Counted from the stretch's first letter, positions 806 through 59,284 are shown. The stretch: 64,000 bases of DNA from Escherichia coli (GCF_051903065.1 NZ_CP178438.1), one strand, 5' to 3'. Notes: generated from the sequence alone by a model not told the origin. Numbers and translations are program-made.

Positions 806-863
806 TTTCTGGTGACGTTTGGCGGTATCAGTTTTACTCCGTGACTGCTCTGCCGCCCTTTTT
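806..863 (+). ncRNA. dicF: DicF antisense sRNA (ftsZ translation inhibitor) with intrinsic terminator
   Basis: Sequence tttctggtgacgtttggcggtatcagttttactccgtgactgctctgccgcccttttt: ggcgg (821-825) pairs with ccgcc (853-857), followed by a T-run at 859-863. Matches the DicF sequence as I recall it and sits between ydfC and dicB. Confidence 0.7.
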
Positions 864-1032: not shown

Positions 1033-1056
1033 ATGAAAACGTTATTACCAAACGTT
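1033..1056 (+). pseudogene. dicB: dicB 5' fragment (first 8 codons, MKTLLPNV) interrupted by IS1
   Basis: ATG at 1033, atg aaa acg tta tta cca aac gtt = MKTLLPNV, the N-terminus of the cell-division inhibitor DicB. The IS1 inverted repeat begins at 1057. Confidence 0.7.
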
Positions 1057-1071
1057 GGTAATGACTCCAAC

Positions 1072-1575
1072 TTATTGATAGTGTTTTATGTTCAGATAAT
1101 GCCCGATGACTTTGTCATGCAGCTCCACCGATTTTGAGAACGACAGCGACTTCCGTCCCAGCCGTGCCAGGTGCTGCCTCAGATTCAGGTTATGCCGCTC
1201 AATTCGCTGCGTATATCGCTTGCTGATTACGTGCAGCTTTCCCTTCAGGCGGGATTCATACAGCGGACAGCCATCCGTCATCCATATCACCACGTCAAAG
1301 GGTGACAGCAGGCTCATAAGACGCCCCAGCGTCGCCATAGTGCGTTCACCGAATACGTGCGCAACAACCGTCTTCCGGAGCCTGTCATACGCGTAAAACA
1401 GCCAGCGCTGGCGCGATTTAGCCCCGACATAGCCCCACTGTTCGTCCATTTCCGCGCAGACGATGACGTCACTGCCCGGCTGTATGCGCGAGGTTACCGA
1501 CTGCGGCCTGAGTTTTTTAAGTGACGTAAAATCGTGTTGAGGCCAACGCCCATAATGCGGGCTGTTGCCCGGCAT
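1072..1575 (-). CDS. insB: IS1 transposase InsB (expressed as InsAB' by -1 frameshift)
   Basis: 167-aa [30 protein letters not shown]…, recognisable as IS1 InsB. Confidence 0.95.
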
Positions 1576-1769
1576 CCAACGCCATTCATGGCCATATCAA
1601 TGATTTTCTGGTGCGTACCGGGTTGAGAAGCGGTGTAAGTGAACTGCAGTTGCCATGTTTTACGGCAGTGAGAGCAGAGATAGCGCTGATGTCCGGCGGT
1701 GCTTTTGCCGTTACGCACCACCCCGTCAGTAGCTGAACAGGAGGGACAGCTGATAGAAACAGAAGCCAC
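1494..1769 (-). CDS. insA: IS1 InsA (repressor / N-terminal part of transposase)
   Basis: 91-aa [46 protein letters not shown]…, recognisable as IS1 InsA with its zinc-finger-like CxxC…CxxC. Confidence 0.95.
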
Positions 1770-1824
1770 TGGAGCACCTCAAAAACACCATCATACACTA
1801 AATCAGTAAGTTGGCAGCATCACC

Positions 1825-2928
1825 GCAAAACAGTTTCCCTCCTCACGCAATCTGGAAAAATTTGGTGAGGCCCGACAAGATTTAACCATAAAAGAACTGG
1901 CTGAAAAATTTCTGGCACTGAAAGAAACTGAAGTCGCCAAAACATCACTCAACACATACCGTGCCGTCATCAAAAATATCCTAAGCATAATCGGTGAAAA
2001 AAATCTTGCCTCATCGATTAATAAAGAAAAATTACTGGAGGTTCGTAAAGAGCTACTGACTGGATACCAGATCCCCAAAAGTAACTATATTGTTACACAA
2101 CCAGGGAGATCGGCTGTAACTGTAAATAATTACATGACAAATCTTAACGCCGTGTTCCAGTTTGGTGTTGATAACGGTTACCTGGCAGATAATCCGTTTA
2201 AGGGGATCTCGCCATTAAAGGAATCAAGAACCATTCCGGATCCTCTTTCGCGGGAGGAATTTATCCGTCTTATCGATGCGTGCAGAAATCAGCAAGCAAA
2301 AAATTTATGGTGTGTTTCTGTTTATACTGGCGTTCGCCCTGGTGAGCTGTGTGCACTTGGATGGGAGGACATAGATCTGAAAAATGGAACAATGATGATC
2401 AGGAGAAATTTAGCAAAAGACCGTTTCACGGTACCAAAAACACAGGCGGGAACCAATCGGGTCATTCATCTTATTAAGCCAGCAATCGACGCTCTCCGGA
2501 GTCAGATGACATTAACGAGACTGAGCAAAGAGCATATCATTGATGTTCACCTCAGAGAGTATGGCAGAACAGAAAAACAAAAATGCACCTTTGTTTTTCA
2601 ACCTGAAGTATCAGCGAGAGTAAAAAATTATGGTGACCATTTTACCGTTGACTCAATAAGGCAGATGTGGGACGCAGCGATAAAACGTGCCGGACTCCGC
2701 CATCGAAAATCATATCAGTCGAGACATACTTATGCCTGCTGGTCGCTGACTGCTGGTGCTAACCCGGCATTTATAGCAAACCAGATGGGCCATGCAGATG
2801 CGCAAATGGTATTTCAGGTATACGGAAAATGGATGTCTGAAAACAATAATGCACAGGTAGCTTTGTTAAATACACAGTTAAGCGAGTTTGCCCCAACCAT
2901 ACCCCATAACGAAGCAATGAAAAATTAA
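1825..2928 (+). pseudogene. intQ: prophage tyrosine integrase, 5'-truncated (open frame of 368 codons continues from the IS1 junction; no start codon until 2134)
   Basis: Reading frame open from the IS1 end to TAA at 2926-2928. C-terminal catalytic domain motifs are visible (…GVRPGELCALGWEDIDL…, …HLIKPAIDAL…, …SRHTYACWSLTAGANPAFIANQMGHAD…). The N-terminus is missing. Confidence 0.8.
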
Positions 2929-8287: not shown

Positions 8288-10714
8288 ATGTCCAAAAATG
8301 AACAAATGGTGGGCATCAGCCGCAGAACACTCGTTAAATCTACCGCGATAGGTTCTCTGGCGCTGGCTGCAGGCGGTTTTTCTTTACCGTTTACCCTGCA
8401 CAGTGCAGCAGCAGCGGTACAACAGGCCCGCGAAAAAGTGGTCTGGGGTGCCTGTTCTGTCAACTGTGGTAGCCGCTGTGCACTTCGTCTACATGTTAAA
8501 GATAATGAAGTGACCTGGGTGGAAACTGACAATACCGGCAGCGATGAGTACGGCAACCATCAGGTACGCGCCTGTTTGCGCGGTCGCTCCATCCGCCGGC
8601 GTATTAATCATCCCGATCGCTTGAATTACCCAATGAAACGCGTGGGCAAACGCGGCGAAGGCAAATTCGAACGGATTAGCTGGGATGAAGCCCTGGATAC
8701 TATCGCCAGTAGCCTGAAGAAAACCGTCGAACAATATGGCAATGAGGCTGTATATATTCAGTACTCTTCGGGGATCGTTGGCGGCAATATGACCCGCTCT
8801 TCGCCATCAGCCTCGGCGGTCAAACGCCTGATGAACTGCTACGGCGGTTCACTCAATCAGTATGGCTCCTACAGCACCGCACAAATTTCCTGTGCCATGC
8901 CCTACACCTACGGCAGTAATGATGGCAACAGCACCACGGATATTGAAAACAGCAAGCTGGTCGTGATGTTTGGTAACAACCCGGCAGAAACCCGCATGAG
9001 CGGCGGTGGCATCACTTATCTTCTTGAAAAAGCGCGCGAGAAATCGAACGCCAAAATGATTGTTATCGATCCGCGATATACCGATACGGCTGCTGGTCGT
9101 GAGGATGAATGGCTTCCTATTCGCCCGGGCACCGATGCCGCGCTGGTTGCGGGGATTGCCTGGGTATTGATTAACGAAAATCTCGTTGATCAACCTTTTC
9201 TCGATAAATACTGCGTCGGCTATGACGAAAAAACCTTACCCGCAGATGCACCCAAAAATGGTCACTATAAAGCCTATATTCTTGGTGAAGGTGATGATAA
9301 CACAGCGAAAACGCCGCAGTGGGCTTCGCAAATTACCGGTATCCCGGTGGACCGTATCATCAAACTGGCGCGTGAAATTGGCACAGCAAAACCCGCTTAT
9401 ATCTGCCAGGGCTGGGGGCCGCAACGCCAGGCAAACGGCGAGCTGACTGCACGCGCTATTGCTATGTTGCCTATTTTGACGGGCAATGTCGGCATCAGCG
9501 GCGGAAATAGTGGCGCGCGTGAATCGACCTATACCATTACCATAGAGCGACTGCCGGTGCTGGATAATCCGGTCAAAACGTCAATTTCCTGCTTCAGTTG
9601 GACAGATGCTATCGATCATGGTCCGCAAATGACGGCAATCCGCGACGGCGTCCGCGGCAAAGATAAACTGGATGTGCCCATTAAGTTCATCTGGAACTAC
9701 GCGGGAAATACCCTGGTTAATCAGCATTCTGACATCAACAAAACGCATGAAATTCTGCAAGACGAATCGAAATGCGAAATGATTGTGGTCATCGAAAACT
9801 TTATGACCTCATCGGCAAAATATGCCGACATTCTGCTGCCAGACCTGATGACCGTTGAGCAGGAAGATATTATTCCTAACGACTACGCCGGTAACATGGG
9901 ATATCTCATTTTCCTCCAGCCTGTCACCAGCGAAAAATTCGAACGCAAACCGATTTACTGGATCCTGAGTGAAGTCGCGAAACGTCTTGGACCTGACGTC
10001 TATCAAAAGTTCACAGAAGGTCGTACGCAGGAACAATGGTTACAACATCTGTACGCCAAAATGCTTGCCAAAGATCCGGCGTTACCGTCTTACGACGAAC
10101 TGAAAAAAATGGGTATCTATAAGCGTAAAGATCCCAATGGTCATTTTGTCGCCTACAAAGCATTTCGTGACGACCCCGAGGCAAATCCACTTAAAACACC
10201 TTCCGGTAAGATTGAAATTTATTCCAGCAAGCTGGCGGAAATTGCCCGTACCTGGGAACTGGAAAAAGATGAAGTGATAAGCCCACTGCCAGTTTATGCC
10301 TCTACCTTTGAAGGCTGGGACTCACCTGAACGTAGAACCTTCCCACTGCAACTGTTTGGTTTCCATTACAAATCCCGTACTCACTCGACCTACGGCAATA
10401 TTGATCTCCTGAAGGCTGCCTGCCGTCAGGAGGTGTGGATCAACCCTATAGATGCGCAGAAACGTGGGATTGCCAACGGCGATATGGTGCGGGTGTTTAA
10501 CCATCGTGGCGAAGTTCGGCTACCAGCCAAAGTGACACCACGTATTCTCCCTGGAGTTAGCGCTATGGGCCAGGGAGCCTGGCACGAGGCCAATATGTCT
10601 GGCGATAAAATCGACCATGGAGGCTGTGTGAATACGCTAACCACTCTGCGCCCTTCACCACTGGCGAAGGGAAACCCGCAGCATACGAATCTGGTCGAGA
10701 TCGAAAAAATATAA
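8288..10714 (+). CDS. ynfE: Tat-exported molybdopterin (bis-MGD) oxidoreductase catalytic subunit, DmsA paralog (selenate reductase)
   Basis: 808 aa with twin-arginine signal (SRRTLVKSTAIGSLALAAGG) and an N-terminal Cys cluster (CSVNCGSRC). Confidence 0.95.
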   Translation: MSKNEQMVGISRRTLVKSTAIGSLALAAGGFSLPFTLHSAAAAVQQAREKVVWGACSVNCGSRCALRLHVKDNEVTWVETDNTGSDEYGNHQVRACLRGRSIRRRINHPDRLNYPMKRVGKRGEGKFERISWDEALDTIASSLKKTVEQYGNEAVYIQYSSGIVGGNMTRSSPSASAVKRLMNCYGGSLNQYGSYSTAQISCAMPYTYGSNDGNSTTDIENSKLVVMFGNNPAETRMSGGGITYLLEKAREKSNAKMIVIDPRYTDTAAGREDEWLPIRPGTDAALVAGIAWVLINENLVDQPFLDKYCVGYDEKTLPADAPKNGHYKAYILGEGDDNTAKTPQWASQITGIPVDRIIKLAREIGTAKPAYICQGWGPQRQANGELTARAIAMLPILTGNVGISGGNSGARESTYTITIERLPVLDNPVKTSISCFSWTDAIDHGPQMTAIRDGVRGKDKLDVPIKFIWNYAGNTLVNQHSDINKTHEILQDESKCEMIVVIENFMTSSAKYADILLPDLMTVEQEDIIPNDYAGNMGYLIFLQPVTSEKFERKPIYWILSEVAKRLGPDVYQKFTEGRTQEQWLQHLYAKMLAKDPALPSYDELKKMGIYKRKDPNGHFVAYKAFRDDPEANPLKTPSGKIEIYSSKLAEIARTWELEKDEVISPLPVYASTFEGWDSPERRTFPLQLFGFHYKSRTHSTYGNIDLLKAACRQEVWINPIDAQKRGIANGDMVRVFNHRGEVRLPAKVTPRILPGVSAMGQGAWHEANMSGDKIDHGGCVNTLTTLRPSPLAKGNPQHTNLVEIEKI

Positions 10715-10774
10715 CCCACTACAACCATAAATTCTGGCATGACATTTTGTTTGAAAAGCAATAAGTGAGTAATG

Positions 10775-13198
10775 ATGAAAATCCATACCACAGAGGCGCT
10801 CATGAAGGCTGAAATCAGCCGTAGAAGTCTGATGAAAACCTCCGCACTTGGCAGTCTTGCGCTGGCAAGCAGTGCTTTCACTCTGCCATTTTCCCAAATG
10901 GTCCGGGCGGCACAGGCTCCGGTAGAAGAGAAAGCGGTCTGGAGTTCCTGCACCGTTAACTGCGGGAGCCGCTGTCTGTTACGTTTGCATGTGAAAGATG
11001 ACACCGTGTACTGGGTGGAGTCTGATACGACAGGTGACGACGTCTACGGTAATCATCAGGTTCGAGCGTGTTTACGCGGGCGCTCTATCCGCCGACGGAT
11101 GAATCATCCTGATAGGTTGAAATATCCCATGAAGCGCGTCGGCAAGCGCGGTGAAGGTAAATTTGAACGGATAAGTTGGGACGAAGCCCTGGATACCATC
11201 AGTGATAATCTTCGGCGGATCCTAAAAGATTACGGCAATGAGGCTGTACATGTCCTGTACGGAACAGGTGTAGATGGCGGAAACATCACCAACTCAAACG
11301 TCCCGTACCGTCTGATGAACTCTTGCGGTGGTTTTCTCAGTCGCTATGGCAGCTACAGTACCGCACAGATCAGTGCCGCAATGAGTTATATGTTCGGTGC
11401 CAATGATGGCAACAGCCCGGATGATATCGCCAATACGAAACTGGTCGTTATGTTCGGAAATAACCCGGCAGAAACGCGGATGAGCGGTGGTGGTGTCACT
11501 TACTACGTCGAGCAAGCCCGCGAACGTTCAAACGCACGCATGATCGTCATCGATCCACGTTATAACGACACAGCTGCCGGGCGTGAAGATGAATGGCTGC
11601 CCATTCGCCCTGGCACCGATGGCGCACTGGCCTGTGCGATTGCCTGGGTGCTGATTACTGAAAACATGGTCGATCAGCCATTTCTCGACAAATATTGTGT
11701 TGGTTACGATGAAAAAACGCTGCCCGCCAACGCACCACGTAACGCGCATTATAAAGCCTATATTCTGGGCGAAGGGCCTGACGGCATAGCTAAAACGCCG
11801 GAATGGGCAGCAAAAATCACCAGCATTCCGGCAGAAAAAATTATCCAGTTGGCACGAGAGATCGGTTCAGCAAAACCTGCTTATATTTGTCAGGGTTGGG
11901 GGCCACAACGACATTCCAACGGCGAGCAAACATCCCGCGCTATTGCCATGCTTTCCGTTCTCACCGGTAACGTCGGCATAAACGGCGGCAACTCAGGTGT
12001 ACGCGAAGGTAGCTGGGATCTGGGGGTAGAATGGTTCCCGATGCTTAAGAATCCTGTTAAAACGCAGATTTCCGTCTTTACATGGACAGATGCCATCGAC
12101 CATGGTACGGAAATGACCGCGACCCGTGATGGTGTTCGTGGAAAAGAAAAACTGGATGTCCCCATCAAGTTTTTATGGTGCTACGCCAGTAACACATTGA
12201 TCAATCAACATGGCGACATCAATCACACCCATGAGGTGCTTCAGGATGACAGCAAGTGCGAGATGATTGTTGGCATTGACCACTTCATGACGGCCTCGGC
12301 TAAGTATTGCGATATCCTGTTGCCCGACCTGATGCCAACAGAGCAAGAAGACCTTATCTCTCATGAATCTGCAGGGAATATGGGCTATGTGATCCTCGCC
12401 CAACCCGCAACCTCAGCAAAATTTGAACGCAAACCCATCTACTGGATGCTGAGTGAAGTCGCCAAACGCTTAGGACCGGACGTTTATCAAACCTTTACTG
12501 AAGGTCGCAGTCAGCATGAATGGATCAAATATCTCCATGCGAAAACGAAGGAACGTAACCCTGAGATGCCCGACTACGAGGAGATGAAAACGACCGGGAT
12601 CTTTAAGAAAAAATGCCCGGAAGAACACTACGTCGCTTTCCGCGCATTCCGTGAAGATCCACAGGCAAACCCGTTGAAAACACCTTCGGGGAAAATCGAA
12701 ATTTATTCTGAACGACTGGCGAAGATTGCAGATACCTGGGAATTGAAAAAAGATGAAATTATTCATCCCCTTCCTGCGTATACCCCAGGTTTTGATGGCT
12801 GGGACGATCCCCTGCGGAAAACCTATCCACTGCAGTTAACGGGCTTCCACTACAAAGCGCGTACCCACTCCAGCTACGGCAATATTGATGTGTTACAGCA
12901 GGCCTGCCCACAAGAGGTGTGGATCAACCCCATTGATGCTCAGGCTCGCGGTATCCGTCATGGCGATACCGTGCGGGTATTTAACAATAATGGAGAAATG
13001 CTGATTGCCGCAAAAGTGACTCCGCGTATTCTGCCTGGCGTTACCGCCATCGGGCAAGGTGCGTGGCTTAAAGCGGATATGTTTGGTGACCGGGTCGATC
13101 ACGGCGGCAGTATTAATATTCTGACCTCTCACCGCCCTTCACCGCTGGCAAAGGGAAACCCGTCGCACAGCAATCTTGTCCAGATCGAAAAGGTTTAA
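10775..13198 (+). CDS. ynfF: Tat-exported molybdopterin oxidoreductase catalytic subunit, tandem paralog of ynfE
   Basis: Start at MKIHTTEALMKAEISRRSLMKT…. Aligns along its full length with the ynfE product. Confidence 0.95.
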   Translation: MKIHTTEALMKAEISRRSLMKTSALGSLALASSAFTLPFSQMVRAAQAPVEEKAVWSSCTVNCGSRCLLRLHVKDDTVYWVESDTTGDDVYGNHQVRACLRGRSIRRRMNHPDRLKYPMKRVGKRGEGKFERISWDEALDTISDNLRRILKDYGNEAVHVLYGTGVDGGNITNSNVPYRLMNSCGGFLSRYGSYSTAQISAAMSYMFGANDGNSPDDIANTKLVVMFGNNPAETRMSGGGVTYYVEQARERSNARMIVIDPRYNDTAAGREDEWLPIRPGTDGALACAIAWVLITENMVDQPFLDKYCVGYDEKTLPANAPRNAHYKAYILGEGPDGIAKTPEWAAKITSIPAEKIIQLAREIGSAKPAYICQGWGPQRHSNGEQTSRAIAMLSVLTGNVGINGGNSGVREGSWDLGVEWFPMLKNPVKTQISVFTWTDAIDHGTEMTATRDGVRGKEKLDVPIKFLWCYASNTLINQHGDINHTHEVLQDDSKCEMIVGIDHFMTASAKYCDILLPDLMPTEQEDLISHESAGNMGYVILAQPATSAKFERKPIYWMLSEVAKRLGPDVYQTFTEGRSQHEWIKYLHAKTKERNPEMPDYEEMKTTGIFKKKCPEEHYVAFRAFREDPQANPLKTPSGKIEIYSERLAKIADTWELKKDEIIHPLPAYTPGFDGWDDPLRKTYPLQLTGFHYKARTHSSYGNIDVLQQACPQEVWINPIDAQARGIRHGDTVRVFNNNGEMLIAAKVTPRILPGVTAIGQGAWLKADMFGDRVDHGGSINILTSHRPSPLAKGNPSHSNLVQIEKV

Positions 13199-56395: not shown

Positions 56396-59284
<2,889 letters not shown>

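Follow-up and report, generated by a model that had tools for sequence, protein, structure and literature searches.

The dicB–IS1–integrase locus

The stretch of Escherichia coli DNA analysed here (the window, 64,000 nucleotides) contains, downstream of the ydfABC frames, the dicF small RNA gene, the first eight codons of dicB, a complete IS1 element, and an integrase gene that lacks its 5' end (Table 1).

Table 1. Positions of the features around the dicB–IS1–integrase scar, in window coordinates
Feature	Position	Strand	Basis or remark
Intact dicF (small RNA gene), upstream of the scar	807..858	(+)	Rfam RF00039
dicB remnant, ATG and codons 2-8 (MKTLLPNV)	1033..1056	(+)	translation; same as the first 8 of 62 residues in the relative's DicB
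IS1, complete, IS1A type, 768 bp	1057..1824	(-)	ends located; transposase genes antiparallel to dicB
Terminal inverted repeat, insB end (IRR), abutting dicB codon 8	1057..1079	.	GGTAATGACTCCAACTTATTGAT
insB frame, 167 codons from ATG	1072..1575	(-)	ORF list; reached via a -1 frameshift at AAAAAAC
insA, 91 codons	1494..1769	(-)	ORF list and translation
Terminal inverted repeat, insA end (IRL), abutting integrase codon 60	1802..1824	.	reverse complement, GGTGATGCTGCCAACTTACTGAT
Integrase remnant, codons 60-426 and stop	1825..2928	(+)	identical to L007 12001-13104

On the left side of the element, DicF matched its Rfam model over the full length (model positions 1–52 of 52) with 76.7 bits against a gathering score of 48, and the dicF terminator is also intact, in agreement with the original prediction. 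The spacer between ydfC and dicF carries a private SNP at 657, where the window has A and both 23CRST027 and ECNB21-M121 have G. The dicB frame continues beyond codon 8 for 26 codons into IS1, up to a stop at 1135-1137, and would encode a 34-aa nonsense fusion. The intact DicB of the relative ECNB21-M121 (62 aa) scores 132.8 bits with NCBIfam NF049927, of which the window keeps only residues 1–8, so that the predicted inactivation of DicB can be read from the sequence.

The element is delimited by GGTAATGACTCC... at 1057 and ...GGCAGCATCACC at 1824, which places a complete IS1 directly after dicB codon 8, as had been proposed; the ends and the translation agree on this point. The two 23-bp ends agree at 18 of 23 positions and are thus imperfect inverted repeats of the IS1 kind, and the A6C (AAAAAAC) frameshift motif is present at IS1 position 307 on the transposase strand. 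The element is 99.5–99.9% identical (1–4 differences) to IS1A copies in six other genomes, and the same copy in the sister genome 23CRST027, from which it differs by one base, is annotated in RefSeq as an IS1A family transposase. No further IS1 copy was found elsewhere in the window, which therefore holds no partner for an inversion or for a reciprocal product.

The 9 bp flanking the element are CCAAACGTT on the left and GCAAAACAG on the right. They differ, as the original prediction had stated, and re-inspection revealed no direct repeat of 8–9 bp. The missing 9-bp duplication is expected of a deletion derivative and casts no doubt on the identity of the element as IS1.

The single base that distinguishes the window IS1 from the copy at the same locus in 23CRST027 lies at 1267 (IS1 position 211, InsB codon 103), where the window has A and 23CRST027 has C. 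The A causes a Trp-to-Cys substitution in InsB, two residues past the TDG motif, and is rare (8 of ~8,100 records). In 23CRST027 and 23CRST031, this variant is carried by another IS1 copy at a distance of about 93 kb, and the difference at 1267 could reflect either gene conversion between IS1 copies or mis-assignment of reads in assembly polishing. The T at IS1 position 507 is a common variant (4,283 records). A mosaic comparison of the element had too few variable sites, and the position-211 variant is also found in another IS1 of the lineage; this points to gene conversion or read mis-assignment, with no clear mosaic.

On the right side of the element, the frame that starts at 1825 reads AKQFPSS..., corresponding to codon 60 of a 426-aa integrase, and remains open to a stop at 2926-2928, in line with the proposal that an integrase frame without its N-terminus follows the element. 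The remnant has no start of its own, the first in-frame ATG, GTG or TTG being at 2134. In the intact integrase, the Pfam domains Arm-DNA-bind_2 and Phage_integrase span residues 4–67 and 201–392, respectively. Since the remnant begins at residue 60, it lacks the start codon and all but a small part of the arm-binding domain, and the product, as judged from its translation, would keep the catalytic domain.

Downstream of the integrase remnant lie rspB, rspA and ynfA, the genes that border the Qin prophage on the K-12 chromosome. Two further repeats were seen in the window. Two adjoining 2.4-kb segments at 8432-13015, which are 70–77% identical with a spacing of 2,484–2,496 bp, correspond to the paralogous ynfE and ynfF genes. 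A 96-bp tandem repeat (6.4 copies, 92% identity), encoding 32-residue repeats, occupies 58622-59235 in the C-terminal part of a 772-codon ORF (56966-59284), which is presumably an rsxC-like gene; the copy number of this repeat probably varies between strains.

The deleted interval and the distribution of its junctions

Among 5,426 complete E. coli genomes, ECNB21-M121 is the closest relative whose locus is free of insertion sequences, differing by 5 SNPs in ~23 kb of flank, and its locus (L007) was used as the reference for alignment of the window flanks. The right flank (22 kb) is essentially identical in only 3 of the 5,426 genomes, namely 23CRST027, 23CRST031 and ECNB21-M121, and the genes neighbouring the locus have the same RefSeq protein accessions in ECNB21-M121 and 23CRST027. 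In ECNB21-M121, the locus consists of dicB (62 codons), ydfD, an 823-codon exonuclease gene, xis, and a 426-codon integrase gene adjoining rspB, with no IS1 at either endpoint of the scar. The exonuclease shows a partial, below-cutoff similarity to exodeoxyribonuclease VIII.

The flanks of the window are collinear with this locus up to both IS1 ends. The left flank stops at L007 8548 (1 SNP in 1,056 bp) and the right flank resumes at 12001 (4 SNPs in 22,000 bp), and the alignment that had been proposed for defining the deleted interval thus gives 3,452 bp (L007 8549-12000), which are absent from the window and have IS1 in their place. The lost DNA comprises dicB codons 9–62, ydfD, the whole 823-codon exonuclease gene, xis, and integrase codons 1–59.

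The order dicB-ydfD-exonuclease-xis-int was also found in PEC422, TW10573, E8 and TUM17668. The reference arrangement, in these four genomes and in ECNB21-M121, therefore keeps the integrase gene apart from dicB codon 8, and the deletion reading of the original prediction holds. Because the flanks match the IS-free relative exactly to both junctions, the arrangement is no chance pattern. These results leave no doubt that an IS1-associated deletion produced the scar, which lies in a Qin-like cryptic prophage adjoining rspB.

The distribution of the scar was assessed with 130-bp probes across each junction, in the observed and in the opposite orientation, against the same 5,426 complete genomes. 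A simple insertion in dicB would show the right junction IS1/CCAAACGTTAATACGTCTG, and a simple insertion in int the left junction TTTTCGACTATGCAAAACAG/GGTAATGACTCC. Both exact junctions were found only in 23CRST027 and 23CRST031, which originate from human faeces in Ecuador, and in which RefSeq already lists an IS1A transposase between a partial DicB and a partial integrase, the two remnants being marked as pseudogenes. The window is distinct from both assemblies, and it differs from 23CRST027 at 2 positions in 7 kb (657 and 1267). None of the 5,426 genomes had IS1 at only one of the two endpoints, IS1 copies at both endpoints with the intervening DNA, or an opposite-orientation insertion at either site. 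The near matches of the probes were either independent events offset by 2 bp or unrelated two-piece matches.

A second insertion marks the same lineage. In 23CRST027 (L001 1629-3659), an IS903B whose transposase is frameshifted interrupts the phage replication O gene of the same prophage; this insertion is common only to 23CRST027 and 23CRST031, and the O gene is uninterrupted in ECNB21-M121. The IS903B-in-O marker revealed no closer relatives beyond the two sister genomes. In the literature, we found no paper linking IS1 with dicB and no paper mentioning the 23CRST strains.

Target-site duplications and routes to the deletion

As a control, every IS1 copy in the retrieved loci was mapped onto the IS-free reference. 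A perfect 9-bp duplication was present in 7 of 7 simple insertions (PEC422, TUM17668, two in TW10573, 23CRST022, and two in 22F46). In contrast, 3 of 3 independent copies without a duplication, those of the window lineage, E8 and a7, have adjacent DNA missing. In these loci, a missing duplication thus carries information. In E8 (L009 5510-6277), 216 bp are missing between ydfD and the exonuclease gene. This scar is hard to explain as two insertions followed by recombination, so that transposase-made adjacent deletions seem to occur in the region. In a7 (L003 6001-6768), an IS1B-type copy with 10 differences joins the ydfK region directly to int, and nearly the whole Qin prophage is missing.

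These copies also bear on the choice of the endpoints. The int junction of a7, at ATGCAAAAC, lies 2 bp to the left of the int junction of the window. At the dicB side, 23CRST022 and 22F46 (L002 6156-6923 and L008 5099-5866) have a simple IS1 insertion with the duplication TACCAAACG, 2 bp to the left of the window junction, although in a different lambdoid prophage adjoining potC, which points to the 5' end of dicB as a site favoured by IS1. Both endpoints are thus genuine IS1 targets, with independent IS1 ends 2 bp away at each. By a rough estimate, two coincidences within 2 bp are unlikely to arise by chance even with 50–100 independent IS1 events in this 5-kb segment across the collection, a formal probability being biased because the genomes with 2-bp-offset junctions were found through their likeness to the query. 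The coincidences at both endpoints suggest a local target preference of IS1.

The dicB site is A+T-rich (67% versus 54.5% in the region), and 12 bp upstream of it lies an IHF-like motif that deviates at a single position, but nothing comparable was found at the int site. As no convincing motif is common to both sites, A+T-richness or an IHF-like motif was rejected as the cause of the hot spots.

The lineage carries about 36 IS1 copies, compared to a median of 10 in the genomes having any. One of these, in 23CRST027 at ~1.911 Mb (L011 3821-4588), interrupts an autotransporter gene of the ESPR/ECSE_1600 type and also lacks a duplication (TAAGCGGTT versus GCACCTGGC); it is probably a second IS1-associated deletion.

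The original prediction had left two routes to the scar side by side, an IS1-mediated adjacent deletion and an inter-IS recombination. Its common part, a deletion mediated by IS1, stands. The final sequence is the same under both routes and does not tell at which endpoint the original insertion took place, and the data do not separate the two. We favour the former, a single IS1 insertion followed by an IS1-promoted adjacent deletion, with a probability of roughly 0.55. On this route, an IS1 from the IS1-rich genome would first insert at one of the endpoints, in dicB or in int, and generate a 9-bp duplication. The transposase would then join the other IS1 end to a target ~3.4 kb away in the same molecule, by intramolecular replicative transposition in the deletion orientation (an 'adjacent deletion'). 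IS1 and one original junction would be kept, and the intervening DNA would be released as a circle and lost. The intermediate with IS1 at one endpoint is one that we infer, and it was not seen in the 5,426 complete genomes.

Several lines of evidence argue for an adjacent deletion over recombination. The route needs two rare steps since the split from the IS-free relative, compared to three for recombination, and the 216-bp scar of E8 suggests that transposase-made deletions occur in the same region. Adjacent deletions begin exactly at the IS end and stop at a transposition target, as documented for IS1/Tn9 (reviewed in PMC9330008), and the scar shows the same traits: the missing interval starts precisely where IS1 ends, the element itself is kept, and no duplication flanks it. 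In addition, the time-series cases of the long-term evolution experiment were resolved as insertion followed by adjacent deletion, with an earlier IS at the same place in 14 of 14 IS-associated deletions without duplication, although this precedent concerns IS150 and not IS1 (PMC11708052).

The second route is somewhat less probable but deserves serious consideration. Two same-orientation IS1 insertions, the first directly behind dicB codon 8 and the other at int codon 59/60, would be followed by RecA-dependent recombination between the 768-bp repeats, which would remove the interval together with one IS1. The product would be a single IS1 flanked on the left by the remaining half of the dicB duplication and on the right by that of the int duplication, as seen in the window. 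The sites themselves are plausible primary targets, each being at most 2 bp from independent IS1 insertion sites in other strains. IS1 insertions are frequent in the 5-kb segment (PEC422, TUM17668, twice in TW10573, and E8), the genome carries about 36 copies, and two copies coexist in the segment in TW10573, though in opposite orientations. However, this route demands three events, compared to two, since a relative separated by only 5 SNPs in 23 kb was still free of IS, and none of the 5,426 complete genomes has both copies, or either copy alone, at the exact positions. Nor could a mosaic pattern be shown at the few informative sites of the IS1, which differs from the 23CRST027 copy by one base.

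A one-step origin, in which IS1 would move into the break of a forming 3.4-kb deletion, with no prior IS1 and no staggered cut of the target, appears improbable. Capture of an IS by a break has been proposed, but is unproven, for some mutations that combine an IS with a rearrangement (Ngan et al. 2024, PMC11708052), and an IS at the centre of the deletion, the missing duplication, and a nearest relative free of IS at both endpoints fit that description. Both junctions, however, are 2 bp from independent IS1 sites, which argues for a choice directed by the transposase and not for an arbitrary break. The E. coli B cases were all resolved as insertion followed by adjacent deletion (PMC11708052), and the divergence from the IS-free relative is sufficient for several successive events.

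An assembly artefact, in which the assembler would have fused two IS1 copies and left out the intervening DNA, is very unlikely. Repeats of this size break short-read assemblies, about 36 such copies are present, and the single IS1 SNP between the window and 23CRST027 could reflect mis-assignment of reads between copies, but the same junctions and the same deletion occur in the independently deposited complete chromosomes of 23CRST027 and 23CRST031, as well as in the window. Finally, a simple IS1 insertion into a locus where the integrase frame already adjoined dicB codon 8 is refuted by the arrangement in the relative, the alignment of the flanks and the duplication controls, since no genome joins dicB codon 8 to int codon 60 without IS1, all versions that are IS-free or otherwise interrupted read dicB-ydfD-exonuclease-xis-int, and a simple insertion would carry a 9-bp duplication, as all seven controls do.

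Comparable scars and consequences for the prophage

K-12 carries a similar scar in its Qin prophage, ydfE'-IS2E(insD7)-'intQ (b1577-b1579), which affects the same module at the same site by rspB. The gene order in K-12 is dicB-ydfD-ydfE-insD-intQ, and K-12 matches the ECNB21-M121 locus at L007 8301-9760 and 11945-13395, with an IS2E remnant replacing the 2,184 bp of 9761-11944. The original prediction had proposed an alignment with genomes carrying an intact dicB-ydfD-ydfE-intQ region; K-12 is no such intact reference, as it has an IS2E-associated deletion of its own. As in the window, the 3' part of the exonuclease gene, xis and the 5' end of the integrase gene are lost in K-12, which leaves ydfE and intQ as pseudogenes, and the prophage would be unable to excise. 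The two scars differ in the element, which is a 706-bp IS2 fragment in K-12 and a complete IS1 in the window, and in extent: in K-12, dicB and ydfD are spared and 40 integrase codons are gone, whereas in the window the deletion takes dicB codons 9–62, ydfD and 59 integrase codons. The K-12 and window scars are independent, parallel events. Outside the IS2E remnant, K-12 (L004 4386-5845) and ECNB21-M121 (L007 8301-9760) share a 1,460-bp stretch of 100% identity that runs from dicF into the 5' part of the exonuclease gene, and are 99.3% identical on the integrase side.

The IS1 scars of a7 and E8 resemble that of the window in affecting the same prophage, in having no duplication, and in the missing adjacent DNA. 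They differ in size, a7 having lost nearly all of Qin around an IS1B-type copy and E8 only 216 bp, and they arose as independent events in unrelated lineages.

Outside this prophage, the scar resembles the classical IS1-promoted adjacent deletions, which are reportedly attributed to Reif and Saedler in 1975. The classical deletions in gal and Tn9 have the same exact IS1 terminus, an intact IS1, a distal end at a transposition target, and no duplication (PMC9330008). The starting insertion was known in those cases, whereas for the window the intermediate was not observed and the mechanism is deduced from the final sequence. The Lenski long-term experiment likewise yielded IS elements beside deletions without a duplication, which were resolved there by a time series (PMC11708052). 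Those cases concern IS150 in E. coli B in the laboratory, in contrast to the window, which presents IS1 in a natural lineage of human-gut isolates without a time series.

As judged from the sequence, DicB and YdfD would no longer be made in this lineage, while dicF and the dicA/dicC control region appear to stay intact, dicA and dicC being annotated as intact in the sister genome 23CRST027. The scar would thus deprive the lineage of a division inhibitor (DicB) and a lysis protein (YdfD), both prophage toxins, and leave it DicF. With Xis and the arm-binding domain of the integrase lost, the Qin-like prophage would also be expected to be unable to excise.

The scar is a new allele of a textbook phenomenon, and its remnants are already known as annotated pseudogenes in the public sister genomes. 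For annotation, it offers a textbook case in which a missing target-site duplication flags a deletion. It can also serve as a clean marker of the clone to which 23CRST027 and 23CRST031 belong, with little importance beyond this lineage. Together with the scars of K-12 (IS2) and of a7 and E8 (IS1), it indicates that insertion sequences have eroded the dicB-to-int module in Qin-like prophages several times, in independent events.
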